44,688 nucleotides of DNA from an uncultured Gammaproteobacteria bacterium (GTDB taxonomy: Bacteria > Patescibacteriota > Microgenomatia > Levybacterales > UBA12049): NCBI GenBank assembly GCA_964579845.1, contig CAZOHC010000006.1, positions 1 to 44,688 of the forward strand, in the 5' to 3' direction. The notes below the pieces were generated by a model. That model searched no databases, was not told the origin of the DNA, and saw nothing but the letters and a program-made list of their open reading frames with translations. Both the position numbers and the translations under genes were made by a program. This document shows, piece after piece, positions 363 through 43,728 of the stretch (the stretch's first letter is position 1; each line of letters starts with the position of its first letter).

Positions 363-3300
363 ATGAAAACTCTGTCCCAATTTCAGCATTATTTAATTTC
401 ACAATCATCAGCAAGTCCTGCTACCGTGAAAAACTACTCCGCTGATATCAGACGATTCATCAGATGGTACGAAGATCGTTTTAAGGAAACCTTTGATCCG
501 GTGAAAATATCTGCGCAGATGATCACAGAGTTTCGAAATGATCAAACTGCATCAACTCCGAACAAAGAAACCTCACCGTCCGCCACTCGCTCAGTTGAGC
601 GATACCTGTCATCACTGAGAAAGTATTTTTCCTACCTCGTCACAGTAGATGTGCTGCAGACGAACCCGTTTGACGAACTGAAAGCACTTGCGGCTACGAA
701 AGAAAAAGCAGACCCATGGGAAATTACAGCATTCAAGAACATGCTCTATGAAGCTAAAGCATCAGATCTAACAATAAAAAACTATATCATAGATATTCAA
801 CAATTTATCACGTGGATGACAGCAGCAATCGGCACAGGTGATCAATTTGAGATTCATGAGCATAATATCCCTTCATACATCACCCCAAGTGTTCTTGAGG
901 AATATAAAAGCCGACTGCTTCATGAAGCCAAAGCATCACCCAAAACCGTTAACCGCAAACTCTCCTCACTCAGAAAATATATCCTCTGGGCACAGAAGAG
1001 AAATATGATTCCGGAGTTTGCCCCTGAACAGCTGCCGAAGAATACCGGGGAGAGAGTGGCAACAGGTGTAGTCGTAGCAGAATCTGAAGACACATATCAG
1101 TCAGAAGCACCTATTGCTATCACTGAGCCTGAGGCAGTTATTGAGACAGGTCAGGACGAACCTGAGGAAATCTCTGCCTCAATAAAAGAAGAGTTCATGA
1201 AACCAAGCAGTTACTCGAGAATCCCGCCTGTGCGATTACTCCAAAAAGTGCGGAAAGGCGGGATGTTCTTGTTTGATATAGTTGTCGTGCTACCGCTTGT
1301 TACCGGGATGGAAGTTATCAATTATCGAATCTGGCTGCTAAAAGGCAGCCCTGTCTTCGTCCCACAGGCACGTCCATCACTTAGCAAAAGAGCCAAGCAA
1401 CTGATACTCAAGCACAATCTGCTTCCCCGCCGAGTTACTCCGTCAAAGCCGAAAGTTATCGCGAGTATCCCGAAGTCATTCTATGCGCCGATGGCGATCT
1501 CGCTCAGACACGCGCCACTTCATAAAAAAGCACTGTTTCACCTGAAGCACACCAGACCGAAATGGTACCGATCGTACCATTCCTACGGTATCGTCCACTA
1601 TGCACACGCTGCGATACTGGTCATCATTATGTCAGCAGCTGGCTTCGGCGTCGTACAGGCAATGTCTGACTCTGGGCAGACGCCTGTTGCGGTTGCATCA
1701 CTTCCTGCCGGTCCGCCGAGACTGGTCGCATTCAAAGGAAGGCTTATTACATCAGAGACATCACCGATCACCGCAAATACCAATTTGCGGTTCGGCATTT
1801 ATAAGGATGCAAAAGCTTCAGGCTCAGCACTCCTCTGGGAAGAGGTACGTGAGGTGACACCTGATGAAACAGGCGCGTTCAGTCTGATGCTTGGTGAAGT
1901 ACGTGAGATTCCGCAGCGGCTGTTTACTGATAACCCCAGACTCTACATCGGCATGACCGTCGGTACCGAACAGGAGCTCACACCGCGCAAGCAAATCCCG
2001 ACAGCAGTACTCGCCTCAACCGCAGACACGCTACAGGGGCTACGCCCGATTACAGACCCGCAGGCAGGTGAGAAAAATGCCGTCTTAGCACTCGATTCTT
2101 CGGGAAATATGGTCATCGGCGGAAACGCAAATCCTGTTTTCATAGCGACAGGCGGTAGTTTCACGCTGGCAGGACAGACCCTCATTCTGACAACCGCACC
2201 AGGGACTGATAGTGACATCGTTATCGCACCTGACGGATTCGGAAAAGTTGATATACAGAGACCGATTCACAATACATCAGAACAGATCAGCCCGTCAGGG
2301 ATAACAGGAGCTGTCGAGATAGCTGATAACCTCGTTATCACAGCCAGTCAAAGTGCACAATCAGCCCTTTATATCAACCAAAACTCCAACGGTCCACTCA
2401 TTAGCGCAAGTAGTAGTGGAATTGCTAAATTTACGCTTGAACATACCGGTGCAGCCTCGTTCGGTGATAGTCTCATGATTCATGGGGATACCTTGAGCAC
2501 GACACAGACCAGTTTCAGCCTCCTCACGACCAATCCGATTAACCTCAACTTCGGCACGTCAGCAACTTCCCTCTCAATCGGTGGAACAGAAGGAACAACC
2601 ACGATTAATAATTCCCGAACGATTATTTCGGGAAATCTGGACGTAAACGGAACAACCGGCCTCACCTTCGGGAATTCATCGGCCGGGATTACCTTTAGCG
2701 GTGGCGGGACTCACCTGATAAAAGCCTCCTCCGGCGACCTCAAACTGGGTGAAGTCACCCTCACCGGAACGACGAAGCTGGCAAAAGACCAGAGCATTCT
2801 GCCGGAGAGTGCTGATGGAATCAATAACCTGGGGTCACAGAGCAATCCTTTTGACACACTCTATGTTGAGAACATTGCTTCCCCTGCACTGCTCTGGCAG
2901 ACAAGCGGAACAGCGATCACGCCGAAACACGCAGAGAGCATCGCCTTGGGTACGAACACGGCAGCACCTGTCTGGCAAGTATTCGCCTCAGGTGCCAAGG
3001 CAGGAACAGCCTCGAGTTCCGGAAGCCTCAGTTTTACCGGCAGTAACACAACTATTGATACATTACATGGCGGGAGTCTCACCTTCCGCATGTCACCCGG
3101 AGGAGATGACGGCTTGTCCCCGATCATGACGCTATCTGCAGACAGAGTTGATATCGTCGGAACTGTCACCGCAACAGATCTTATAGAAACTTCGTCACGT
3201 CGATATAAGAAAGATATCGTGCCGGTCCATGACCCGCTTGGCACTATCGGCAAACTGCAGGGCGTGTACTATACCTGGGATGAAGATCACGGCGGGAGAC

Positions 3301-5000
3301 GGGCACTCGGATTTATTGCAGAAGAGGTCGGGGCGGTTATTCCTGAAGTAGTTCATTGGGAGGAAGACGGTGTTCATGCTCGCGGTATCAGCTACGGGGA
3401 TCTTACTGCACTTGCCATTGAGGGAATAAAAGCCCAACAGAAACAGATCTCAGTCCTCTCAGGCATGGTCCATGCTATTACCCTCACTGAGGACACACAG
3501 CTCCATGTTATGGTAAACGGGACTGATGTCACCGTTCAGGACGAGACAGGAACACCGGTAACCGCGAAAGGAGGATTCGCTGAAGCAGTCATCGGGAAAA
3601 TAACAGCTGGCATGCAGCAGGTGCATCATCTGACGACAGGAACAATGCAGGCAGGACAAAGCATTCTGGGCATTGCCAGTGCAGACAGCCTCACAACAGA
3701 GTATCTTGCAGTCGGCGACATGCAGGTCGCCGGGACACTCGGTGCGACTCAGGCAACCATTCTCTCACTCCGGACAGAATCATTGCAAGCAACAGAAGGT
3801 GACAGTCTTACGCTATCGCTCGGTTCATCTGCAATCCGCATCCTTACAGGCAGCCAAGGAGTACAAATTGCTGTGACAGAGTTTGATAGCTACGGCAACG
3901 CCTCATTCACCGGAGCAATACGAGCAGAGCAGGTCGTCGCGGCGACTTCAGTCACCGCCAAAAAAATTATCGCTGATGAGCTGAACCTTAGTGACGAGGG
4001 ATTACGTTCACTCGCACAACACATCGCAGGTTATCTTCCGCAAAGCAGTCAAAATACTTCAGAAAATATCCATCTATCACTTACTACTACAGATCTCCCG
4101 GGGGAAAATGAAGCGGATTCTGCCTCAGAATCCGGTGTTTTGACCGGTGAGACAGATGATTCTGCATCATCATCTGCAGGATTAACCGACCATCCGATTG
4201 TTTCTGACTATTCGCCACTCCCCCCGTCTCTGCCTAATTATAATAGTATAGGAGAAACACTTATCGGCTCATCAATGCCGACCGGTGCCGGCTATGTCGT
4301 CTCTGATTTGTCTGTTGCGGATACGCTCATCGTCAGCGGCAACTTCATCATGAACAATAACTCGATCAATGTAATCGGTGCTGACCTGGAGATTCAGCCG
4401 CTCCAAGCAGGAGGAGTCTCGTTCATGGCAGGACTTGTCACCATCTCCCCTGATGGGAATTTGACCGTAAACGGTAACGCGTTCTTCGCAGGCGATATGA
4501 CCGTAAACGGACAACTCCAAGCAGGCATCATCTCCCCTGTCGGAGAACAGGATCTGATCGTCAAACTCGGGACAGAACAAGCATCTGGAGATCAGTCACT
4601 TGTTATTCAGAACGCGACAGGAGCGTCACAACTGCGTATCAATGACACCGGTGATATCGAATCAGAAGGAACAGGAAGCTTTACATCACTCCTCTCAAAG
4701 TCACTGAATATCGCACGAGGTGCACAGGCGGATGATTCACCGGTGAGAACCATCGCCTCGTCTTCAGCTGGGACCGCGGTAATTCTCCCCGGCCAAACCT
4801 ATCGAACGATTGTGACACCGTTCGTCAACGCTGAGTCGCTCGTCTACATGACACCGACCTCAGACACCCAAGGTGTTGTACCGTATATCGCCAGACAAAC
4901 AGCAGAAGACCCGATGCGAGGCAGAAAAGGCTCCTTTACGATCGAGATCAGTAACCCGGTCACCAAGCCGATCAAGGTTAATTGGTGGGTTGTGAATTAG
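363..5000 (+). CDS. Giant membrane-anchored fibre protein: two integrase-type N-terminal SAM-like (core-binding) modules, TM helices, long fibre repeats and an internal Peptidase_S74-like intramolecular chaperone domain
   Basis: 1545-codon ORF with AAAGGAA upstream of ATG 363. Residues 1-215 hold two tandem XerC/D core-binding-like segments (SPATVKNYSADIRRFIRWY..RYLSSLRKYFSYL; DLTIKNYIIDIQQFITWM..RKLSSLRKYILWA) and no catalytic domain. Hydrophobic helices lie near aa 300-325 and 410-433. SSRRYKKDI..GISYGDLTALAIEGIKAQ (nt 3192-3462) fits the tail-spike S74 chaperone motif. Confidence 0.85.
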   Translation: MKTLSQFQHYLISQSSASPATVKNYSADIRRFIRWYEDRFKETFDPVKISAQMITEFRNDQTASTPNKETSPSATRSVERYLSSLRKYFSYLVTVDVLQTNPFDELKALAATKEKADPWEITAFKNMLYEAKASDLTIKNYIIDIQQFITWMTAAIGTGDQFEIHEHNIPSYITPSVLEEYKSRLLHEAKASPKTVNRKLSSLRKYILWAQKRNMIPEFAPEQLPKNTGERVATGVVVAESEDTYQSEAPIAITEPEAVIETGQDEPEEISASIKEEFMKPSSYSRIPPVRLLQKVRKGGMFLFDIVVVLPLVTGMEVINYRIWLLKGSPVFVPQARPSLSKRAKQLILKHNLLPRRVTPSKPKVIASIPKSFYAPMAISLRHAPLHKKALFHLKHTRPKWYRSYHSYGIVHYAHAAILVIIMSAAGFGVVQAMSDSGQTPVAVASLPAGPPRLVAFKGRLITSETSPITANTNLRFGIYKDAKASGSALLWEEVREVTPDETGAFSLMLGEVREIPQRLFTDNPRLYIGMTVGTEQELTPRKQIPTAVLASTADTLQGLRPITDPQAGEKNAVLALDSSGNMVIGGNANPVFIATGGSFTLAGQTLILTTAPGTDSDIVIAPDGFGKVDIQRPIHNTSEQISPSGITGAVEIADNLVITASQSAQSALYINQNSNGPLISASSSGIAKFTLEHTGAASFGDSLMIHGDTLSTTQTSFSLLTTNPINLNFGTSATSLSIGGTEGTTTINNSRTIISGNLDVNGTTGLTFGNSSAGITFSGGGTHLIKASSGDLKLGEVTLTGTTKLAKDQSILPESADGINNLGSQSNPFDTLYVENIASPALLWQTSGTAITPKHAESIALGTNTAAPVWQVFASGAKAGTASSSGSLSFTGSNTTIDTLHGGSLTFRMSPGGDDGLSPIMTLSADRVDIVGTVTATDLIETSSRRYKKDIVPVHDPLGTIGKLQGVYYTWDEDHGGRRALGFIAEEVGAVIPEVVHWEEDGVHARGISYGDLTALAIEGIKAQQKQISVLSGMVHAITLTEDTQLHVMVNGTDVTVQDETGTPVTAKGGFAEAVIGKITAGMQQVHHLTTGTMQAGQSILGIASADSLTTEYLAVGDMQVAGTLGATQATILSLRTESLQATEGDSLTLSLGSSAIRILTGSQGVQIAVTEFDSYGNASFTGAIRAEQVVAATSVTAKKIIADELNLSDEGLRSLAQHIAGYLPQSSQNTSENIHLSLTTTDLPGENEADSASESGVLTGETDDSASSSAGLTDHPIVSDYSPLPPSLPNYNSIGETLIGSSMPTGAGYVVSDLSVADTLIVSGNFIMNNNSINVIGADLEIQPLQAGGVSFMAGLVTISPDGNLTVNGNAFFAGDMTVNGQLQAGIISPVGEQDLIVKLGTEQASGDQSLVIQNATGASQLRINDTGDIESEGTGSFTSLLSKSLNIARGAQADDSPVRTIASSSAGTAVILPGQTYRTIVTPFVNAESLVYMTPTSDTQGVVPYIARQTAEDPMRGRKGSFTIEISNPVTKPIKVNWWVVN

Positions 5001-5302: not shown

Positions 5303-7330
5303 GTGCTGCTCACGCTGACGTTTCTGGCTATCCGAACAGTCGTCGACGGCAAACTCAGCCTGAGATCGACGCCATTTGACCTGCCGGTGTTTCTTTTTGC
5401 TATCGTACTCTTTGTGTCATCAATGCTCTCAGCAAACAGAATCGAGAGTCTTATCTCGTTTATCCCGATCTTCTATGCTATTCTCCTTTATTTTATTATC
5501 GTCAACAGCATTCGCGGGAAAAAATCACTGCTTATTCTCTGCGGTGCGCTGATTTTGGGAACCAGTCTCACAGCATTTATCAGTATTCTTTCGTTCTTTT
5601 CAATCCATATTCTGCCGTTTCAGTACACGCATGTACAGTACTTCTCACCGCTCGGCAGTCTCCTGGATCAAGCACTGGTTTTTGGTTTGGTGCTCCCACT
5701 TGCAGCATACCTCGCTCACCCGCTCTTTTCAGCAGTGCTACTCAGCGGAAAGCCTGAAGACGCTCCGAGCAATAAGAAAATGGGAACCCAGACGATGCTC
5801 TTTGGGATCGGCCTTGTTTTAGTAGGACTCGGCCTGATCGTCACGCTATATCAGCTGATGACGACGCAGAAGCCGTTAATCCTCCCGTTTGAGACAGGGT
5901 TCCAGACTGCATTCGCTTCAATCTCCCAGGACGCAGGACGTGTGCTCCAGAGCTTCCTGTTCGGCAGCGGCTATGGAACCTATCTCACAGATTTCACTCG
6001 GTTCAAACAAGCAGCATATAACAACAATAATACACTCTGGGCATTCACTTTTTTCCGCTCATCCAGCTTCATTCTCGAACTCTTAGCGACAACCGGGTTC
6101 CTTGGTCTCGCATCATTCCTGTTTATAATCTTCAAAGTACTCAAGGAAAAATGGTTCTTCCTGCCGCTCGTCCTCGTCATCATCGCAGCGTTTTTCCTGC
6201 CGTTCTCATTCATCATGCAGGCAATGTTCTTCATACTACTTGGTATATTCGCGCTCTCACGGGCACAGCAGAATCCACGCAAATATCAGCATACTGAGAT
6301 GACCTTGGTCGCCTTAAAACGAGGATTGCTTAGTGCGCAATCAGACGGCCAGGAAGCTCGAGGGAAGAATTCTCCAGCTCTCCCGGTAATCTTTGCCGTA
6401 CTCATGACAGTCCTCGTCCTTACGCTTGGCTACTATACCGTCAGGTTCGTACTTTCTGACCTGACGTTCCAGCGATCACTTGTTGCTGCATCACAGAATA
6501 ACGGCAGTCAGACCTATGAACTCCAGAGACAAGCTATCTCAACCTTCCCGTACCGAGACACCTACTATCGTGTCTTCTCACAGACAAATCTGGCGATAGC
6601 AAACAACCTCGCAGCCTCACAGCCACAGGGCGCTTCGCCGAGTGCAGAGACACAGCAGACGATACTTACATTGATTCAGCAGTCGATCAACTCAGGGAGA
6701 ACAGCTGTGACGATCAGCCCGCTGACAGCGATGAACTGGAATAATCTTTCCTCGATCTACCGAAGTCTCATCGGGTTCGGACAAAACGCTGACCAATTCT
6801 CAATCCTCACGAATAGGCAGGCGATCGCACTTGATCCGAATAATCCGCAGCAATATATTAATCTCGGCGGTATCTATTACCAGCTTGGCCAATGGGAAGA
6901 AGCACAGCGGAATTTCCAGATCGCGATCAATCTCAAGCCTGATTATGCCAATGCCTACTACAACCTCGGCCATGCGCTGGAGTCCAAAGGAGATCTTGAA
7001 AACGCATTGGTCGTCTACCAGACAGTCAGATCACTTGTCGCGAATCAGAAAGAGAGTGTTGACCAGATCAACCAGGAAATTGCTGCTCTCGAGCAGAAAA
7101 TAGGCGCTGCCGGACAGACACCGCCTGCAACAGATGAAGCGGAAGAAGAAATTGATGAGGACCAGCTTCCGCTTGGCGTGAATGCACCTGAACAACAGCT
7201 TCCGGAGAGAAACCCACAGATTCAAATCCCTGGAGTCACGATCTCACCTACGACGCTTCCTGCCAGGACGTCTCCGACACCGGGAGCCGGTACGACGACT
7301 TCCCCATCACCTACAGCTACGGATAACTAG
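5303..7330 (+). CDS. Polytopic O-antigen-ligase/Wzy-like membrane protein with C-terminal TPR repeats (N-terminus interrupted by an in-frame TAG)
   Basis: 675-codon ORF starting at GTG 5303 with many hydrophobic segments and a FGSGYGTY loop. TPR repeats are clear (YINLGGIYYQLGQWEEAQRNFQIAINLKPDYANAYYNLGHALESKGDLENA). The same frame is open from ATG 5141 except for TAG at 5279-5281. Confidence 0.8.
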   Translation: MLLTLTFLAIRTVVDGKLSLRSTPFDLPVFLFAIVLFVSSMLSANRIESLISFIPIFYAILLYFIIVNSIRGKKSLLILCGALILGTSLTAFISILSFFSIHILPFQYTHVQYFSPLGSLLDQALVFGLVLPLAAYLAHPLFSAVLLSGKPEDAPSNKKMGTQTMLFGIGLVLVGLGLIVTLYQLMTTQKPLILPFETGFQTAFASISQDAGRVLQSFLFGSGYGTYLTDFTRFKQAAYNNNNTLWAFTFFRSSSFILELLATTGFLGLASFLFIIFKVLKEKWFFLPLVLVIIAAFFLPFSFIMQAMFFILLGIFALSRAQQNPRKYQHTEMTLVALKRGLLSAQSDGQEARGKNSPALPVIFAVLMTVLVLTLGYYTVRFVLSDLTFQRSLVAASQNNGSQTYELQRQAISTFPYRDTYYRVFSQTNLAIANNLAASQPQGASPSAETQQTILTLIQQSINSGRTAVTISPLTAMNWNNLSSIYRSLIGFGQNADQFSILTNRQAIALDPNNPQQYINLGGIYYQLGQWEEAQRNFQIAINLKPDYANAYYNLGHALESKGDLENALVVYQTVRSLVANQKESVDQINQEIAALEQKIGAAGQTPPATDEAEEEIDEDQLPLGVNAPEQQLPERNPQIQIPGVTISPTTLPARTSPTPGAGTTTSPSPTATDN

Positions 7331-7531
7331 TTCATGACTACGTAAGCTTTTGAACAGCCACTTCAACTTCTCACGTCACATACTGTAGCTCTGACAAGCG
7401 TACATTCTACAAATATCGACACCTTCCCCCAAATCCGACGTCACAGAATCGATTATAAGGGGTAAAAAAACAGTACGCTGACTAATATCCTATCTCTCGT
7501 TAAAAGCGTATTGACACTTCATCGCTCCCAA

Positions 7532-7880
7532 GTCATTCTGAGCGAAGCGAAGAATCATATTTCTTGTGACGTACTACTCCGTCTATATTCTCACCAATAA
7601 GTCCCAAACGACGCTTTATCCAGGAGTGACGAATAATCTGTCCCGGAGAGTACGAGAACATAGAATGGGCTAGATTGAAGGATTCATTAAGAAATATAAC
7701 AGTACGAAGTTGGTTTTCATTGAGCCATTGATACATCTCGAGGAGGCCCTTAAAGCAGAAGAGAAAGTGAGAGCGGATGGACTCGAGCGAAAAAACAAGT
7801 ATTAATAGAATCAATGCATGGACAAGGGAAGAACTTGTCTTCAGAGATATTTTGAGATTCTTCGCTTTGCTCAGAATGAC
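7532..7880. repeat. R1: inverted 25-nt arms of the GTCATTCTGA..GAAGAATC palindrome family enclosing the GIY-YIG pseudogene
   Basis: Left arm 7532-7556 is gtcattctgagcgaagcgaagaatc. Right arm 7856-7880 is gattcttcgctttgctcagaatgac. The arms are reverse complements at 24 of 25 positions. Confidence 0.8.
7566..7805 (+). pseudogene. GIY-YIG (UPF0213-type) nuclease gene with an in-frame TAG
   Basis: The frame reads VTYYSVYILTNKSQTTLYPGVTNNLSRRVREHRMG-TAG(7671-7673)-IEGFIKKYNSTKLVFIEPLIHLEEALKAEEKVRADGLERKNKY. This matches the GIY-YIG small-protein pattern but has YPG instead of YIG, a premature stop and a short C-terminus. Confidence 0.6.
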
Positions 7881-8068
7881 ACGCATGAGGAATCAGACGA
7901 ACAGATTGCTCCTCCATCGTCCGCTTCACGGGCTCGCACTGACACTCACTGCGACTTAAAATTCATAAAATTGATGAGCAAGCATGTACCTTATCTGCTA
8001 GGGGTATTTTTCGTATGCGATACTAAAATTATATACTTTTGTATATTATTACATACTCGTATAGGCAC

Positions 8069-8107
8069 AAAAAAAGAGCGTTCTCCTTACGAATTACGCT
8101 CCTTTTT
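8069..8107 (-). terminator. Rho-independent terminator after the zinc-ribbon gene (looks bidirectional)
   Basis: Hairpin GAGCGT(8076-8081)/ACGCTC(8096-8101) is flanked by an A7 tract on the plus strand (U7 on the minus strand) and by T5 downstream. Confidence 0.7.
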
Positions 8108-8136
8108 ATCCATGTAACGGGATGAAACCCGGAACA

Positions 8137-18034: not shown

Positions 18035-18060
18035 CAATTTTAAATTTGAAATTTTCATTG
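18035..18060. repeat. Left inverted repeat flanking the four-helix-bundle gene
   Basis: The reverse complement of caattttaaatttgaaattttcattg shares tgaaaatttcaaatt plus flanking bases with 18461-18482. Confidence 0.6.
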
Positions 18061-18070
18061 AATTCATTTT

Positions 18071-18439
18071 TCATGATGAACTGACAGCTATTTTTGAAAA
18101 AATCAAAGTAAACTCCTGCGCCTCTTGCCATAAGGTACGACAATCTTCTTTTTTTGAATCAACAGCATGCGCTAACATCCGCAACCAGTATTTCGTTTCC
18201 TTCGCCTCTTTCTTGCAAATATAGATTTTATTCCTAAAGTCTTTTCTACTTGACGCACCATTTGCTTCACAATAATTAGCACCTATGCTTGTTGCTGAAC
18301 GAATCAATTGGCTTATAATCGGGATGGTAATAGTATCCCGCTGGACACTCTTACATAACTCAATCACACGCTCTGCGAACAAAGCTGTCCTCTCTTCCAA
18401 ATCATATGTTTTATGTTCTACTATTGACATTAAATCCAC
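18071..18439 (-). CDS. Four-helix-bundle protein (23S rRNA intervening-sequence protein family)
   Basis: 122 aa. YDLEERTALFAERVIELCK..ISQLIRSATSIGANYCEANGASSRKDFRNKIYICKKEAKETKYWLRML is the family signature. Confidence 0.85.
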   Translation of the reverse strand: MDLMSIVEHKTYDLEERTALFAERVIELCKSVQRDTITIPIISQLIRSATSIGANYCEANGASSRKDFRNKIYICKKEAKETKYWLRMLAHAVDSKKEDCRTLWQEAQEFTLIFSKIAVSSS

Positions 18440-18460: not shown

Positions 18461-18482
18461 TGAAAATTTCAAATTAAAAATT
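18461..18482. repeat. Right inverted repeat flanking the four-helix-bundle gene
   Basis: tgaaaatttcaaattaaaaatt is the inverted partner of 18035-18060. Confidence 0.6.
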
Positions 18483-32689: not shown

Positions 32690-35551
32690 TTATCCCTCGA
32701 AAATATTCCCCTCTTCAAGCGTCTTTTTCGGTTCTCCTGGGTGATTAGTATCTTTTTTCTGCGCTTTCTCTTGCATCATGCTGTTGGGGTGCTGTCTCTT
32801 ATGAAACGGTTTTCCCGCATGTCCTGATGCATGGTGCGGTTTCTGCGCATGAGGCTGCTGTCCGTTGTCTCGTTCTGATGCATTCCGATGCTCAGATCCG
32901 GTGGAACTTCGAGGTTGTGCATGTTGCTTGGTATCATCGGAACCGGAATTTTTCTGCTCGTTATTTCTATCAGACTTCGCAAAGAATTTTTCCTGTGACA
33001 GGTCAACTGATGCCCTATCCCGTTTTTCTTCAGGTTGTGTCTGTGGCTTCTGTGCCGGCTGGGCGTGTTTCGGAGGCTGGTTTTCTTTTCGTTCGACCTG
33101 TTCAGGTGAATGTTGCTTCGGTTTCTCAAACGAGGACTGCTCACGCCGTTCCGGTGACGAAGGTCTATTCTCGTGCTTACGTTCCCCACCTTGTTGCTTA
33201 GACTGATTAGCTTGTCCTCCAGGCGGCTTTTGCCCGCCTGCTTGCGGTTTCTGCGTAGGAGGTTCGCTGTATACACCGGGAATCGAGATCAGGACATCTT
33301 CTTTCACAGGCTTCATATATCGCTCACGACTCATCTTCATCACTTTTTCCCGATTCTGGGTCACGGATCGAGGTAGTGGCAGCGTAAAGCACATAAACGG
33401 ACTGGAGGTCATCCCGTCAATCATCATCTTCAGAATAGCCTGGTAATTCCCGAGTGCGAGCACATCTTCTTCTTTGAAGCGTTCGACGAATTCTTTCGCC
33501 AGATACGGACTATCCCCTGCACCGACGAGGAAGGTCATAATCGTCCCGCAGTTCCCGAAGATCGCAAGCCTGACGTCTTCGTCGATCTGTCCCATATACT
33601 GGTTCGCCAGAATCAGATTAAGGCGGTATTTTCGAGCTTCAGAGAGAATTTTGATAAACGATGACGTCGCGAAATTCTGGAACTCATCCACATACAGGTA
33701 AAAATCCCGTCGCTCAGACTCCTCCTGAAACGCACGACTCATCGCAGCCAATTGCAGTTTTGTAATAATCATCGCACCCAGAAGTGCTGCGTTATCCTCA
33801 CCCAGTTTTCCCTGCGACAGGTTCAGCAGGAGAATTTTCCCCTCATCCATGACTTTGAGGAGGTCGAGTGATGACTTCGGATTTTTGATGATGTTCCGGA
33901 TGACGGTACTGGAGACGAACTGACCGACTTTGTTCTGAATCGGTGAGACTGCCTCTGTTCTCATCTTGTCTGAATACATGTTAAATTCATTTAACCAGAA
34001 ACTTTTCAGCACCGGATTAGTGAGGCGATCGAAGACTTTGGCACGGAATTTCGCATTCGCAAGCATCTCAGGCACCATAAGCAGCGTCGCATCAGGCATT
34101 TCGATGACTGATGCGAGTGTATTTCTCAGAATGTATTCAAGTCGTGGTCCCCAGGACGTTCCGTACAGTTTATTAAAAATCGCGACAATGCCTGAAACCA
34201 CGAGTTCTTTCTGCTCCGGATTATTCACTTCAAGCGGATTCAGAGAGAATGCATTCTGCGTGTCTGAGGGGTCAAGCGAGATAATGTCATTCACCCGGTA
34301 CGACGGAACATAATCCAACACCGTCTCACACAGATCACCATGCGGGTCGATAATACAGAAGCCCTCACGATTTCGCATATCATTAATCGCCATATTCGCG
34401 ATAAAAGTCGACTTCCCGGTACCTGTTTTTCCGATGACATAGAAATGGCGTCTCCTGTCGACTTTTTTAATCCCGAAGACCATCTGACGGTTTTTAAACT
34501 CCGTTCTCCCGAAGAAATTTACGTCTGCTTTCTGCTCATCAGTCATGAATTCAGCAACAGGCAAATTCTCCGGTGCATCCGTCAGAATCACCTTATGCCA
34601 GGCGATATTCGGAATCGTCGAGAGCTGCATGCCGGGGAAATGGAACAAAGTCGCCAGCTCCCGGACATTCAGAATCTGATGCGTCGGGGTAAAATACTGT
34701 GAACGATCCTGCATATGCTTGAGAAGCCGCTGTTTCTGCCAGAGAACAGGCTTACTCAGATGCAGACTGCTACCTGCAGGATTGTTAAATGACGAGAATG
34801 AATGCGCGATCTCGGTCATAAAATGATACGATCGCTGTTTCGTCGGACCGTTGGTCGCGATTCTGATGGCTGTTCTGAACCCGGCATAGGCGACTTTCTC
34901 GAGAATTTCTTTAGCTTTCGGATTCGGGTGTGCAGTACCGGCACTATCGACTGTTTTTTTATTCGCCTCATGTTCACCTGAACGCTGCCAGGAATCACCT
35001 ATAGGGTATAACAGGTACTGAATCACCGCGACATCTCCGGGCTGAGACTTCGAAAGAATACCGAGGATAGACGAGATCGGATCGACATCCTTAAACGTAT
35101 CGAAGGTTTTAATCGGCAGTAAACCGCCGGTGAGCTTCAGCTGGGTATAGGAGAGCGTATCTTTTTTCGCGAGCATCTCAGGCAGATAGTCTTTGACCCG
35201 TGAGATGAGTGCTTTCGGATACTGCGCGACGAGCTGACTCTCGATAAACGCCTGGTAGTCAGGCGGTACTACGAGGAAAAATCTGATCTGCTGATCGACA
35301 ACCCCGATCTCCAGGCTGATCGGAATCCCCCGCTTCAGAAAGACATAGTGCCTGAATCTGAGCTCGGTCAAACTGCTTAAAAACTGCACTGTCGATTCAG
35401 GTGTTTGTTCTCCGGTGCGTGACGTGCGTATTTCGAGGACAACATGTTTCGGTGACTCATACGCATCCTTAGTGGCTACCATATAGCTTACATAATAGTG
35501 TATCTGAGGCTTCGACGCAACGTGGACAATGCCAATGTGAGCCTGAAACAA
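32690..35551 (-). CDS. VirD4/TraD-like type IV coupling-protein-family ATPase with a long disordered Q/P/K/H-rich tail
   Basis: 953 aa with Walker A GKTGTGKST and Walker B-like FYLYVDEFQNF. The ARKYRLNLILANQY motif is present. The last ~230 aa are low complexity. ATG 35482 is an alternative start. Confidence 0.85.
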   Translation of the reverse strand: MFQAHIGIVHVASKPQIHYYVSYMVATKDAYESPKHVVLEIRTSRTGEQTPESTVQFLSSLTELRFRHYVFLKRGIPISLEIGVVDQQIRFFLVVPPDYQAFIESQLVAQYPKALISRVKDYLPEMLAKKDTLSYTQLKLTGGLLPIKTFDTFKDVDPISSILGILSKSQPGDVAVIQYLLYPIGDSWQRSGEHEANKKTVDSAGTAHPNPKAKEILEKVAYAGFRTAIRIATNGPTKQRSYHFMTEIAHSFSSFNNPAGSSLHLSKPVLWQKQRLLKHMQDRSQYFTPTHQILNVRELATLFHFPGMQLSTIPNIAWHKVILTDAPENLPVAEFMTDEQKADVNFFGRTEFKNRQMVFGIKKVDRRRHFYVIGKTGTGKSTFIANMAINDMRNREGFCIIDPHGDLCETVLDYVPSYRVNDIISLDPSDTQNAFSLNPLEVNNPEQKELVVSGIVAIFNKLYGTSWGPRLEYILRNTLASVIEMPDATLLMVPEMLANAKFRAKVFDRLTNPVLKSFWLNEFNMYSDKMRTEAVSPIQNKVGQFVSSTVIRNIIKNPKSSLDLLKVMDEGKILLLNLSQGKLGEDNAALLGAMIITKLQLAAMSRAFQEESERRDFYLYVDEFQNFATSSFIKILSEARKYRLNLILANQYMGQIDEDVRLAIFGNCGTIMTFLVGAGDSPYLAKEFVERFKEEDVLALGNYQAILKMMIDGMTSSPFMCFTLPLPRSVTQNREKVMKMSRERYMKPVKEDVLISIPGVYSEPPTQKPQAGGQKPPGGQANQSKQQGGERKHENRPSSPERREQSSFEKPKQHSPEQVERKENQPPKHAQPAQKPQTQPEEKRDRASVDLSQEKFFAKSDRNNEQKNSGSDDTKQHAQPRSSTGSEHRNASERDNGQQPHAQKPHHASGHAGKPFHKRQHPNSMMQEKAQKKDTNHPGEPKKTLEEGNIFEG

Positions 35552-35696: not shown

Positions 35697-35780
35697 CCCC
35701 TTCATCTCATCAATATTGATGAGTTTTTGCCCGCCTGCATCGCATATGCGAAGCATTTCGGGCAGGTTCTCGACATTTTC

Positions 35781-35878
35781 GTCATCCTGAACGAAGTGTG
35801 ATTTATCCATTGAACATATCAATGAAATCACCCTGATTAGGGAAGGATCTCAAGATTCTTCGCTACACTCAGAATGAC
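35781..35878. repeat. R2: composite nested palindrome in reverse orientation relative to R9
   Basis: gtcatcctgaac..gtgtgatttatccattgaacatatcaatgaaatcaccctgattagggaaggatctcaagattcttcgctacactcagaatgac. Its reverse complement matches R9 almost base for base over ~70 nt. Confidence 0.8.
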
Positions 35879-35995: not shown

Positions 35996-36592
35996 AACGT
36001 GGTGGATCGTCAGGCCTTCCTGTTCATAGAACATGGGACGCTTCCGACCAGTTTGGCTTCGGCATAATCTCTTATCCAACTTAATTCAATTTGGAAGGAG
36101 GGGAAAATGCCGCGTGCACCGCCTAAAAAACGGTGAAACTTGGGTATATGAAGAATATACCCACTTAATATAGATCGCGGAGCCTTGGCTGACGGTGCCC
36201 CGGGCATAGCCTGCGGGATTCGGCCGATTGGCTCAAAATCTCACACTCATGCGAGTGTGAAAATTGTGTTTAACTGAAGTGAGGAGGGCGGATTGCGAAC
36301 GCTGATACCTCCGTAAGGAGGGAACGTTTTGCGCCTGGATGGGCGCTAATTTAGCCTCCCCCGTCACGTTTCCGGGGTTCCCCATATCGGGGAACCCCAG
36401 TTCTTACACCAGTACAACATACAGCATTGAAGCTGACAGCTTCGTTCCCCTATCGCTTGCGATAGATCGAACGATCCCAGGCTCTCAATGCCCAAGCTGG
36501 CTCGATTTATCGGCCACTCCTCTGTAACTTACTATCAACCCCCAAATCCCCCACTTTTGAAATTCCAAAACATTACCTATTTCTAAACTCGT

Positions 36593-36706
36593 GTCATGCT
36601 GATCAGAGTGTGATTTATCCATTGAACTTATCAATGAAATCACCCTGATTAGAGAAGAATCTTTTTTATAAGATCCTTCTCTCGATTTCATCGGGATCAG
36701 GATGAC
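36593..36706. repeat. R3: composite nested palindrome
   Basis: gtcatgctgatcagagtgtgatttatccattgaacttatcaatgaaatcaccctgattagagaagaatc..gatccttctc..gatcaggatgac. Confidence 0.75.
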
Positions 36707-37478: not shown

Positions 37479-38306
37479 ACGACATTTACTTGTACGATAT
37501 TTGATTCGTATCTCATGTAAAATGCTCGCCTATTTTGTATTCTGATGTACTGCACAATGCGGTATGCAGAAGATCTTTGACAAGGTACAGAGGAACATTG
37601 AGAGATACCGGAGGGTATTTTCCTTCCCTGCATAAAACACCAGCCAAGACGTTCGGTATACGTGAAAATGCAAAGGTCAAAATGCAAAAGTATGGTCATC
37701 CTGAATTGATTTTCAGGATCAACTTAAACTTTTTATCTGAATTTTTGCCTTTTACCTTTTAAAATTTGAATTCACCGTATCACCGTAGGTGTTGGCCGGT
37801 GTTTTGTGATGGGGATCGATACGAGCCTCCAACTCACTCCCGAAATCAGTAGAAGTCCCCGTACTCTACGGTTAGAGGAATTCGTGACTCGTCACGAAAC
37901 ATCGGCGCCACTCTCCTAGGTGGAGAGTTCGTGCCCGGAGGGCAATATGACAGGTTCGCTCACTGTCGATAGGAGGTCAATCTTTATGAACGATCCACCC
38001 TCGACTGAAGCGCCGTCTGAAGCGATCGCCTAAGAGCTTTTAGTTTGCTCTGCTCAGGCCGATCGTTTCACCGGAGGGTGTAGCATTACACCCTCCACTT
38101 ACTTTGAATTCTAACCGCGAAGCCCGGTGTGCTGTGACCCCCACTTGCAGGCACACCCGCTTTGCATTCCGGAAGGAAACATCATCCATCCATCCCGATG
38201 GTGTTTTCTTCCATCCCGAGTTTGAAGTGGTGGCCTACCTTCTCTCCCCCACCACTTCAGCTCATGCAGGAAGACCTGTTCAACAGGTCTTCCTGCCCTT
38301 TTTCAT
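37479..38306 (+). ncRNA. Candidate ~830-nt noncoding (or micro-ORF leader) transcript U3, from P3 to a strong terminator
   Basis: It is bounded by P3 and the 14-bp terminator at 38266. Only a 15-codon ORF has an RBS. Helices include GGAGGGTGT-agcatt-ACACCCTCC and GAAGTGGTGG..CCACCACTTC. Confidence 0.5.
37695..37723. repeat. R10: minimal outer-arm-only version of the palindrome family
   Basis: GTCATCCTGAA-ttgatt-TTCAGGATCAAC. Confidence 0.5.
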
Positions 38307-38494: not shown

Positions 38495-38586
38495 GTCATT
38501 CTGAGGTGTCTACCGAAGAATCCCTTCTGTATGAGACCCCTGTCTGCCGGCAGGCAAGGCTTCATCCTTTCAGTCTTCAGGATGAC
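38495..38586. repeat. R4: degenerate palindrome copy with an internal insertion
   Basis: gtcattctgaggtgtctaccgaagaatccc...cagtcttcaggatgac. Confidence 0.6.
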
Positions 38587-39070: not shown

Positions 39071-39130
39071 GTCATTCTGAACAACCGTGAAGAATCCCTA
39101 TATGAGATCCTTCGCTCCGCTCAGGATGAC
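39071..39130. repeat. R5: compact palindrome copy
   Basis: GTCATTCTGA-acaaccgt-GAAGAATC-cctatatga-GATCCTTC-gctccgc-TCAGGATGAC. Confidence 0.8.
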
Positions 39131-39479
39131 AAATTTCTTTGACCGAGTCATCACGTCAAACGCGACAGGGACTCGATCTGTTTAATCTGGGATTCTGCTC
39201 TGCAGAAGTTCTTTAATAAGGCGAATACGTATAAAAGGAGTTCAAAGGGCAAAAGGCAAAAGTCAAAACGCCTAATACAGCCTTAGGGCTGCTTGTGGTG
39301 CAAAATGATGGATGCGTGAGAATATTGAGCTTCGTAACAGAGATATCTCATAATCGACAGCGGTTAAGGGGGTATGGTTTCATTCAAATGGATTTGAAAC
39401 GATACTCTTTATCCGCTGTTGATATACAAAAGTAACTTTTCATTTTTTACTCCCTTCCCTATCATACTTATATCGCCTT

Positions 39480-39538
39480 ACTGTCTACGCCTCATCGGCG
39501 TACTGATGAGTCCCGCTTTTAAGCAAGGACGAAACAGT
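39480..39538 (+). ncRNA. Hammerhead ribozyme A (type III, compact); predicted cleavage after C39485
   Basis: ACUGU-C|UACGCC-ucauc-GGCGUA-CUGAUGA-GUCC..GGAC-GAA-ACAGU. All invariant core positions are present and stems I, II and III pair. Confidence 0.85.
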
Positions 39539-39597
39539 GTTCTTTAACAAGGCATCGAGATCATCTAAACGGCTCAGAGCCGTGTGGTGATCGAAGA

Positions 39598-40662: not shown

Positions 40663-40808
40663 GGGCTTATCGTCAGCTCAAAGCTGGCCTGATGAGTCCA
40701 TGCTCAAAACTCTGTCATTCTGAAGCCAACTGCTGAAGAATCTCTATATGAGATCCTTCCCTACGCTCCAGGATAACGAAAATTTGAGCTGAGGACGAAA
40801 TACGTTCT
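40663..40808 (+). ncRNA. Hammerhead ribozyme B (type III, long stem II); predicted cleavage after C40671
   Basis: GGGCUUAU-C|GUCAGCU-caa-AGCUGGC-CUGAUGA-GUCC..[R6]..GGAC-GAA-AUACGUUC. The core is intact. Stem I has one G.U pair and stem III has one mismatch. Confidence 0.7.
40714..40777. repeat. R6: palindrome copy forming the distal stem II of hammerhead B
   Basis: gtcattctgaagccaactgctgaagaatctctatatgagatccttccctacgctccaggataac. Confidence 0.75.
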
Positions 40809-41500: not shown

Positions 41501-41514
41501 ATTCATTTCTCTCA

Positions 41515-41655
41515 TTCTGTTTACGCCTCATCGGCGTACTGATGAGTCCATACTCAAACTCTGTCATTCTGAAGCCAACGGCTGAAGAATCTCTCTACAA
41601 GAGGTCCTTCCCTACGCTCCAGGATGACTAGTGAGGAGCTGAGGACGAAACAGAA
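41515..41655 (+). ncRNA. Hammerhead ribozyme C (type III, long stem II); predicted cleavage after U41521
   Basis: UUCUGU-U|UACGCC-ucauc-GGCGUA-CUGAUGA-GUCC..[R7]..GGAC-GAA-ACAGAA. Confidence 0.8.
41563..41628. repeat. R7: palindrome copy forming the distal stem II of hammerhead C
   Basis: gtcattctgaagccaacggctgaagaatctctctacaagaggtccttccctacgctccaggatgac. Confidence 0.75.
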
Positions 41656-41874
41656 GTTCTTTGACAAGGCATAGTCGAGGTCGCCTTTGGCGACCGAAGT
41701 AACTTTTCAGGAAGTACTTACTATACATTCTAAAAAGTTCCAATTTTTATAAACACCTTCTTTCCTTTTCCCGAGGACGATACAGGTGCCGGTGATTGGG
41801 TATCGTGGAAAAATCTTCGTCCACGATGCCTGTTCTCCGGCACACTGGTCCGGGAAATCAAAAGGAGGAAAATC

Positions 41875-43264: not shown

Positions 43265-43405
43265 TTCTGTTCTTCCGATGAAATCGGAACTGATGAGTCC
43301 ATGCTCATTCCTGTCATTCTGAAGCCAATGGCTGAAGAATCTCTCTAAAAGAGATCCTTCATTACACTCAGGATGACTAGTGAGGAGCTGAGGACGAAAA
43401 CAAAA
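43265..43405 (+). ncRNA. Hammerhead ribozyme D (type III, long stem II); predicted cleavage after C43272
   Basis: UUCUGUU-C|UUCCGAU-gaa-AUCGGAA-CUGAUGA-GUCC..[R8]..GGAC-GAA-AACAAAA. The core is intact and stem III has one A/C mismatch. Confidence 0.7.
43313..43377. repeat. R8: palindrome copy forming the distal stem II of hammerhead D
   Basis: gtcattctgaagccaatggctgaagaatctctctaaaagagatccttcattacactcaggatgac. Confidence 0.75.
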
Positions 43406-43408
43406 TCT

Positions 43409-43521
43409 GTCATTCTGATCCTGATAAAATCGGGAGAAGAATCTCTACATGAGATCCTTCCCTAATCAGGGTGATTTCATTGATATGTTCAATGGATAAA
43501 TCACACTCTGTTCAGGATGAC
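43409..43521. repeat. R9: composite nested palindrome, inverted partner of R2
   Basis: gtcattctgatcctgataaaatcgggagaagaatctctacatgagatccttccctaatcagggtgatttcattgatatgttcaatggataaatcacactctgttcaggatgac. Confidence 0.8.
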
Positions 43522-43728
43522 AAAGTTCTTTAAAATAGAAAAGTATTCGGTGCCGGCAGGAGCGCACTGTACAACGGTAGACGAGAGATTAAATCGCACG
43601 AGGTATTTATTTTTTGGGCAGGAAAATAAATTTGATACTTTTGCCTTTTGATTTTTAACGTTTGCACTTGTTATGGTACGCTCCTGTCGGCATTCGAGCG
43701 CTGACACGAGCTTTCTTCGGAGGTATAG

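Follow-up and report, generated by a model that had tools for sequence, protein, structure and literature searches.

A GIY-YIG pseudogene between inverted hairpin units, probably a decayed Ssn-SRM module, and the gene-less hairpin doublets of the same contig

The 44,688-nt contig piece analysed here (contig CAZOHC010000006.1; hereafter the window, to the whole of which all coordinates refer) contains the remnant of a small GIY-YIG nuclease gene between two inverted copies of a 25-nt sequence, and gene-less relatives of that sequence at 35.7-43.6 kb. The left copy (7532-7556, plus strand; GTCATTCTGAGCGAAGCGAAGAATC) ends 9 nt before a GTG start codon at 7566, and the right copy (7856-7880, minus strand) directly abuts the TGA stop codon at 7853-7855, with a gap of 0 nt. 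An initial annotation, made from the sequence alone, had described these copies as arms enclosing 299 nt, and they were found where it had placed them, complementary at 24 of 25 positions (one mismatch) and forming the longest inverted repeat of the window; an arm match with three or fewer mismatches occurred in 0 of 100 dinucleotide-preserving shuffles. The whole stretch of arm, gene and arm is 349 nt long, and is considered below as a candidate member of the Ssn nuclease family with its SRM hairpins (SRM-ssn-SRM).

The pseudogene (7566-7855, plus strand) would comprise about 96 codons once repaired. Its frame reads MTYYSVYILTNKSQTTLYPGVTNN... from the GTG and is halted by the TAG at 7671-7673 that the initial annotation had reported; as homologues often carry Q at this position, the TAG was probably derived from CAG. 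A second lesion, which had been missed, became apparent in the alignment with homologues: after AGA (7770-7772) there are two extra bases, equivalently one missing base, at 7773-7774, by which the C-terminal third (GWTRAKKQVLIESM...SSEIF) is shifted to another frame. The frame past this point reads GWTRAKKQVLIESMHGQGKNLSSEIF, up to the TGA just before the right arm. In addition, the residues T41, N85 and W88, near-invariant in an alignment of 29 homologues (alignment A1), are replaced in the window. Because of the nonsense codon, the frameshift and the loss of conserved residues, this copy appears to be dead and would yield no protein; it is the sole GIY-YIG remnant in the window. An open reading frame (ORF) of 117 aa on the minus strand (7533-7886) was rejected as spurious because its reading simply crosses both arms.

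With both lesions repaired, the protein gave a Pfam match to PF01541 (GIY-YIG) alone (E 3e-10, residues 4-68), and a search of NCBIfam returned no family for it. A protein search returned 176 homologues, and those listed were mostly single-domain proteins of 90-96 aa with up to 58% identity. Alignment A1 shows no variation at Y7, Y18 and E65, whose spacings are 11 and 47. Proteins of this kind were described by Chenal et al. 2025 (Nat Commun 16:2388, PMC11893778) as Ssn, single-domain GIY-YIG nucleases of about 94 aa (CDD cd10448), the prototype of which is SsnA of N. meningitidis (NMV_0044/NMB0047). The catalytic Y6, Y17 and E64 of the N. meningitidis protein are spaced identically to Y7, Y18 and E65 of the repaired window protein.

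In that study, a repeat called NTS in Neisseria (CGTCATTCCCGCGMAVGCGGGAATCYRG) was associated with the ssnA gene across bacteria, typically flanking the gene, and a degenerate motif for such repeats, SRM, located a repeat near 71% of homologues and on both sides in 42%. Purified SsnA bound the hairpin only as single-stranded DNA (ssDNA) and cut it a few nucleotides 5' of the hairpin; cutting was set by the three bases before the palindrome and binding by the C after it. RNA, double-stranded DNA and the reverse strand were not substrates, and RNA was not bound. Three further Ssn homologues cut their own repeats. Repeat recognition has been demonstrated biochemically for four members, and hydrolytic, site-specific cutting of ssDNA beside a hairpin is the sole demonstrated activity of the family. 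In N. meningitidis, SsnA trims NTS-bearing ssDNA taken up during transformation and reduces transformation by such DNA (all from PMC11893778).

The window protein was linked to this family through proteins encoded next to the canonical NTS. Loci were collected by the NTS core followed by GVTN codons 62-92 nt on; they numbered at least 120 and came from over 20 phyla, with Neisseria absent among the matches listed. A hidden Markov model of 89 proteins extracted from loci with the canonical NTS core in GTDB genomes of many phyla matched the repaired protein with 97 bits (E 3e-32), and pairwise identity to most members was about 40-48%. A sequence search of the PDB returned only 1zg2 (B. halodurans BH0048, UPF0213), a distant match (E 0.002, 21 bits).

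The association of gene and hairpin was then examined at the 80 best homologue loci, which were retrieved from genomes of many phyla. Inward-facing hairpin units within 150 nt of the gene, counted by a 9-nt head pattern for which about two per side are expected by chance (our own estimate), were present on at least one side in 47 of the 80 loci: upstream in 37, downstream in 36 and at both flanks in 26. The initial annotation had stated that its reading would be refuted if homologues were never flanked by such arms; with inward-facing units near 47 of 80 genes, this refutation failed. Plotted by position, unit density is sharply highest at the gene, where a 150-nt bin holds 40-44 units compared with 1-3 in the background. 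The upstream unit of a Portnoybacteria homologue (L128) is identical to the left arm of the window and the downstream unit of a homologue in a deltaproteobacterial metagenome-assembled genome (MAG; L153) is identical to the right arm, while a 49%-identical homologue from a Paceibacterota MAG (L140) has the published NTS, TGTCATTCCCGCGCAGGCGGGAATCCAG, on both sides. A protein search with the latter revealed a very large family, with no Neisseria name among the matches listed.

GTDB representative genomes contain the exact 25-mer GTCATTCTGAGCGAAGCGAAGAATC in at least 120 stretches, and the hosts belong to well over ten phyla, among them Nitrospirota, Acidobacteriota, Bacteroidota, Chloroflexota, Bacillota, Planctomycetota, Cyanobacteriota, Verrucomicrobiota, Campylobacterota, Pseudomonadota, Nitrospinota and several Patescibacteria. 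The gene was present in only 2 of the 120 25-mer loci among the matches listed, as expected if hairpins greatly outnumber genes. Proteins associated with the 25-mer share only about 45-55% identity with the repaired window protein. These observations support the small GIY-YIG gene and the hairpin family as a genuine and general pair. The arrangement is the one already described in 2025 as Ssn with SRM/NTS, and the window holds a further, decayed example of it.

Although the initial annotation was right about the inverted layout, it had taken the arms as the two halves of one palindrome, and each 25-nt arm proved to be one small directional hairpin of its own. An unpaired GTC forms the head of the unit; the 5-bp stem (ATTCT/AGAAT) is continued by two G.A/A.G positions and a 2-bp upper stem (GC/GC), which is closed by a loop of 3 nt (GAA in the left unit, 7532-7556), and an unpaired C forms the tail. 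Among 227 units taken from the homologue loci by their 5' half alone, the exact 5-nt reverse complement of the stem followed within 45 nt in 185, against about 8 expected, and C comes next after the stem in almost all of these 185 paired units. In 40 distinct 25-mers, five of the nine pairs are altered on both sides. The upper-stem pair 11-17, which like the other upper-stem pairs had no role in selection, covaries (GC in 22, AU in 16), and at 9-19 and 10-18 there is G.A/A.G in 32 sequences but G-C/A-U in the other 8. G1, T2, C3 and C25 are invariant across the 40 sequences, in agreement with the published mutational data on the head and tail (PMC11893778). In nearest-neighbour ssDNA folding, doublets of units reach -8 to -12 kcal/mol (z = -2 to -3). 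The unit (CUGA-stem-GAAG) resembles a hammerhead core but was not accepted as one, as CUGAUGA and GAAA are not both present.

Considering the domain content and size of the protein, its match to the NTS-adjacent family and the inverted units at both ends of the gene, the locus is very probably a decayed Ssn-SRM module with the arms as its cognate SRMs. Several points weigh against this assignment. Membership in Ssn is bridged through the NTS-adjacent proteins and not through direct comparison with N. meningitidis SsnA or CDD, and the view is limited to one gene copy in 44.7 kb. A single unit folds, by the same nearest-neighbour ssDNA calculation, at only -1.9 kcal/mol, no better than shuffles; as judged from the sequences, the unit hairpin is supported by covariation and not by predicted stability. 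Three of the gene-less doublets lie inside stems of putative ribozymes (see below), where those copies may be maintained at the RNA level. The published SRM pattern, HGTCWYN(0-2)YYVSBRHN(0-5)WNVSBRGN(0-2)RNCYNB, has no match in the window, and of the 80 closest homologues just 1 has a match within 300 nt, compared with 40 that have a nearby match to the pattern of the G.A-containing unit (G.A-type). The G.A-type class thus appears to have escaped the census pattern of Chenal et al. 2025.

The pattern results are reciprocal at the loci of the other type: of 120 NTS-type loci listed, 109 had the published pattern and only 6 had a G.A-type unit. Proteins with the motif KGWTRAKK carry G.A-type units (GTCAYYCYGA..GARGRRTC; L121-L200), and those with KKWNRxWK carry the canonical NTS (ATTCCCGCG..CGCGGGAAT; L204-L323). 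The G.A-type hairpin and the KGWTRAKK protein are, on these pairings, a distinct putative specificity class within the Ssn family, which fits the expectation of Chenal et al. 2025 that there are many co-evolving pairs. Because the hairpin class of the closest relatives goes undetected by the published pattern, the reported prevalence of Ssn-SRM is probably an underestimate. The class would also offer a second, well-defined specificity for ssDNA-cutting tools.

The gene-less units of the window are clustered. A strict pattern, GTCATYCTGA-N3-12-GAAGRATC, has ten matches in the window where 0 are expected, eight of them beyond the gene arms, at 35.8-43.4 kb. A looser search extended these to about 17 units at 35.7-43.6 kb, with none convincing elsewhere in the window. 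The initial annotation had counted ten other copies at 35.8-43.5 kb; these do belong to the same family, but the number is better given as about 17 units, arranged as eight doublets with their heads outward and one singlet. Spacers within doublets are 3-12 nt, with one of 40 nt. Every doublet pairs a T-type unit (ATTCT..AGAAT) with a C-type unit (ATCCT..AGGAT), as the initial annotation had noticed in the consistent difference between the two halves, while both arms of the pseudogene are T-type.

In order along the window, doublet 1 (35781-35878) comprises a long-loop C-type unit (35781-35850, plus strand) and a T-type unit (35854-35878, minus strand), and doublet 2 (36593-36706) a long-loop unit with a degenerate head (36593-36662, plus) and a 35-nt C-type unit (36672-36706, minus). 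The singlet (37695-37720, plus) is of a fully Watson-Crick type, GTCATCCTGAATTGATTTTCAGGATC. In doublet 3 (38495-38586), a T-type unit (38495-38522, plus) is separated by the 40-nt spacer from a C-type unit (38563-38586, minus) whose tail is G and not C. Doublet 4 (39071-39130) has a T-type unit (39071-39096, plus) and a C-type unit (39106-39130, minus) 9 nt apart. The T-type unit comes first on the plus strand, and the C-type unit second on the minus strand, also in doublet 5 (40714-40777; units 40714-40742 and 40752-40777, the C-type degenerate), doublet 6 (41563-41628; units 41563-41591 and 41604-41628) and doublet 7 (43313-43377; units 43313-43341 and 43353-43377). Doublet 8 (43409-43522) combines a 35-nt T-type unit (43409-43443, plus) with a long-loop C-type unit (43452-43522, minus).

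The three long-loop variants (35778-35852, 36592-36662 and 43450-43524; 70-75 nt) fold a further hairpin within their own loop (GTGATTT..CATTGA..TCAATG..AAATCAC), and the first and third are a 75-nt inverted pair, 96% complementary and 7.6 kb apart. This pair brackets the entire cluster of hairpins and hammerheads. Insertion of doublets into pre-existing palindromes was considered as a general rule and rejected: flank complementarity was 4.19 of 12 for 98 doublets against 3.66 of 12 for shuffled partners, a slight excess that gives no general nesting. From the consistent T/C difference, the initial annotation had concluded that the short copies descend from one asymmetric master. This explanation is too local, as T/C heterodimers recur around intact genes and in doublets of many phyla, and heterodimers had already been described for the CGTC-tagged REPs in 2013 (PMC3733652).

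Three of the doublets are located within hammerhead-type elements, all on the plus strand. The putative type III hammerhead at 39478-39540 (RF00008, 41.9 bits, E 1.4e-6) lacks an SRM insert, the loop of its stem II being short. That at 41514-41656 (33.5 bits, E 3e-4) has a 91-nt insert in stem II, with doublet 6 in the distal part of the stem, and a hammerhead-like element at 43265-43405 (21.6 bits) contains doublet 7 in stem II. A fourth copy, a degenerate hammerhead-like module at about 40664-40803, holds doublet 5, so that three of the four elements have an inverted SRM doublet in the loop of stem II. All three full-length matches fall below the RF00008 gathering score of 48.5; an intact core (CUGAUGA...GAAA) and an intact cleavage site, GUC or GUU, can be read in the sequence. 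The copy at 39478 is 97% identical to that at 41514 over stem I and the core, and in the predicted RNA fold of 41510-41660 doublet 6 is a long extension of stem II (-52 kcal/mol, z = -3.6). Between the hammerheads lie small ORFs that have no Pfam match, as Perreault et al. 2011 (PMC3088659) described for prophage regions. The doublets at 40.7, 41.6 and 43.3 kb have homologous flanks in common, being parts of paralogous hammerhead modules, so part of the local hairpin copy number probably comes from duplication of larger hammerhead-containing segments.

A gene for a TraD/TrwB-like coupling ATPase of 953 aa (32690-35551, minus strand; DUF87, TrwB_AAD_bind and TraG-D_C) lies just upstream of the cluster. 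Its position adjoining the hairpins and hammerheads suggests that the region is conjugative or otherwise mobile and would pass through an ssDNA stage. At the other end of the window, an ORF of 1545 aa (363-5000, plus) has an unusual combination of N-terminal phage-integrase SAM-like domains with Peptidase_S74 (endosialidase chaperone) at residues 944-998. Elsewhere, AT-rich 22-nt inverted repeats (18036-18057 and 18461-18482; 95% complementary, 403 nt apart) bracket an ORF of 122 aa (18071-18439, minus).

The pseudogene and its arms lie between a TPR gene (675 aa) and a zf_Tbcl gene, in a spacer of 806 nt (7331-8136) in which the 349-nt module is included. The best relative of the TPR gene is in a Candidatus Levyibacteriota MAG (54% aa identity). 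In the second-closest relative found (L202, 51% aa), the TPR and zf_Tbcl orthologues are adjacent with a spacer of 367 nt (5861-6226), without ssn or SRM.

If the module works as its relatives do, each SRM would be directional, with an unpaired GTC head, a stem in which the sequence is of importance and an unpaired C tail. The predicted cuts would fall outside the module, one per strand, because the units face outward. The eight heads-outward doublets would be gene-less copies of the left-unit/right-unit arrangement, and cutting at the window sites today would need an intact ssn elsewhere in the genome. The module was probably gained in the window lineage: L202 has the same two neighbour genes adjacent without it.

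Whether such a module moves is the question behind the leading alternative, which is compatible with the Ssn-SRM assignment. As in an insertion sequence or a REPtron, SRM-ssn-SRM could be, or have been, an autonomous transposable unit moved by its nuclease, and the doublets miniature non-autonomous derivatives mobilised in trans, which is the reading of the initial annotation; we regard this as possible but rather doubtful. The gene-bearing unit and the doublets have the same architecture, heads outward, with the gene at the exact centre of the palindrome, and among 120 hairpin loci listed from many phyla heads-outward pairs outnumbered heads-inward pairs by 61 to 12, about half of the 61 being heterodimers. 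Around genes with units on both sides, the T-type was upstream and the C-type downstream in 14 cases, the reverse held in 3, and like was paired with like in 12 (binomial p = 0.013), a polarity that recalls the way in which left and right ends differ in IS200/IS605; it is drawn from a small count, and from loci that lack phylogenetic independence. The module is missing at the syntenic site of L202, the exact 25-mer has the wide distribution given above, and an analogy with IS200/IS605 and REP/RAYT was drawn, and a mobile-element hypothesis raised, in the discussion of PMC11893778.

The chemistry of the enzyme counts against autonomous transposition. To our knowledge, GIY-YIG enzymes hydrolyse DNA, form no covalent intermediate and cannot perform strand transfer alone. 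No excision or insertion event has been reported for Ssn-SRM, and a literature search turned up no later paper on its transposition. At the locus itself, no target-site duplication and no clean empty site were found, a precise empty site being indefinable because the spacers of the window and L202 are unalignable at the nucleotide level. A strain-level variant of the locus was not found either, exact look-ups of two neighbour proteins and a metagenome scan with the left flank having given no match, and the shared flanks at 40.7, 41.6 and 43.3 kb point to duplication of larger segments. The initial annotation had drawn the parallel with REP elements and RAYT genes; the architecture bears it out, but the module is not a REPtron, as its enzyme is not Y1/HUH.

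The fullest form of this proposal would make SRM-ssn-SRM an ssDNA-based mobile element driven by its GIY-YIG nuclease, with T-type left and C-type right ends, miniature derivatives in the T/C doublets, horizontal spread as the cause of the identical 25-mer in well over ten phyla, and the G.A-type hairpin with the KGWTRAKK protein as a separate specificity class overlooked by the published census. We consider this combination unlikely. If true, REP/RAYT would have its counterpart among GIY-YIG enzymes, and the "missing enzyme" of the CGTC-tagged REPs would be at hand. The left/right polarity and the gene-less doublets of the same polarity are what bear on the mobility of the module.

The hairpins might instead be elements acting at the RNA level (terminators, mRNA stabilisers or extensions of ribozyme stems), with the adjacent GIY-YIG gene incidental. 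The location of doublets 6 and 7 and of the degenerate doublet 5 within hammerhead-type stems II speaks for this, as does the argument that many REPs act as RNA elements (PMC3733652). It fails to explain the strict unpaired GTC head and C tail and the enrichment around ssn genes in many phyla; moreover, SsnA does not bind RNA (PMC11893778), and scans of IMG/VR and of the JGI metagenomes for further hammerheads that carry an SRM in stem II yielded one chance match each and no hammerhead. As a general account of the hairpins it is therefore very improbable.

We give scarcely any credence to a selfish gene of the homing-endonuclease type in the loop of a pre-existing, unrelated palindromic repeat: the gene does stand at the exact centre of a palindrome that also exists gene-less, and REP dimers are known targets of insertion sequences, with some dimers inside other palindromes (PMC3733652), but the protein lacks the extra DNA-binding domain of homing GIY-YIG enzymes such as I-TevI, and protein subfamily covaries reciprocally with hairpin type, in keeping with a protein that recognises the repeat, which has been shown for four homologues (PMC11893778).

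Returning to the Ssn-SRM assignment, and given that the arrangement of gene and hairpin was already on record, what remains of interest in the window is the G.A-type class that went uncaptured, the polarity between left and right units and the question of module mobility. As minor new points, the window adds a class that escapes the published motif, the polarity of units and three doublets in hammerhead-type stems II.

Among known systems, UPF0213/YhbQ (1zg2) has the small stand-alone GIY-YIG fold in common with the window protein, at 21 bits against 97 bits to the NTS-adjacent profile. IS200/IS605 elements have subterminal hairpins recognised in ssDNA, and the T/C polarity of the window is a weak parallel to their ends; the window element differs in being only 349 nt long and without TnpA or TnpB, and there is no peel-and-paste evidence for SRM-ssn-SRM. 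REP/RAYT, with its REPtrons and REPINs (Nunvar 2010; Bertels and Rainey 2011, PMC3116915; Ton-Hoang 2012), is nearer in layout: a nuclease gene is bracketed by inverted hairpins and accompanied by many gene-less inverted doublets, as in the window, and hairpins are recognised in ssDNA, as in the Ssn family. The RAYT enzyme is a Y1/HUH transposase, whereas a hydrolytic GIY-YIG domain is the only domain in the window and no transposition chemistry is known for GIY-YIG Ssn; the head is GTAG there and (T/A)GTC, of the CGTC class, in the window.

The CGTC-tagged REPs (Di Nocera et al. 2013, BMC Genomics 14:522, PMC3733652) are closer at the level of the hairpin. Their tag is often TGTC, they are mostly dimers and often heterodimers, and family CGTC-1 is the Neisseria dRS3; the authors knew no dedicated enzyme for them. 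In both, A-T and T-A are the first pairs of the stem and a short tail stays unpaired; in the window, the head is TGTC in most units (AGTC at 7531-7534), and the tail is C, usually with TC behind it. Dimers occupy 8 of the 9 gene-less sites of the window, and clusters of such REPs occur in some genomes. The stems of the four families described there are 8-9 bp, Watson-Crick paired, with loops of 4-5 nt, in contrast to the 5 bp, two G.A positions and 2 bp of the window unit with its 3-nt loop (longer in variants), and a partner gene is evident in the window and in Chenal et al. 2025.

The closest system is Ssn itself. The window differs from the published cases in that its gene is a pseudogene, its host is probably a bacterium of the candidate phyla radiation (Patescibacteria), and its protein belongs to a sister subfamily (KGWTRAKK as opposed to KKWNRxWK); its stem has the tandem G.A, the 2-bp upper stem and a GNA-type triloop where NTS has CCCGCG/CGCGGG. 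NTS and the window unit have in common the GTC head, a palindrome beginning ATTC and the C tail. In both systems a single-domain GIY-YIG protein, of about 94 aa there and about 96 aa with only PF01541 in the repaired window ORF, is encoded by a gene bracketed by inverted directional hairpins whose head is (C/T)GTC and whose tail is C, and in both the hairpin is also dispersed and clustered elsewhere, mostly between genes.

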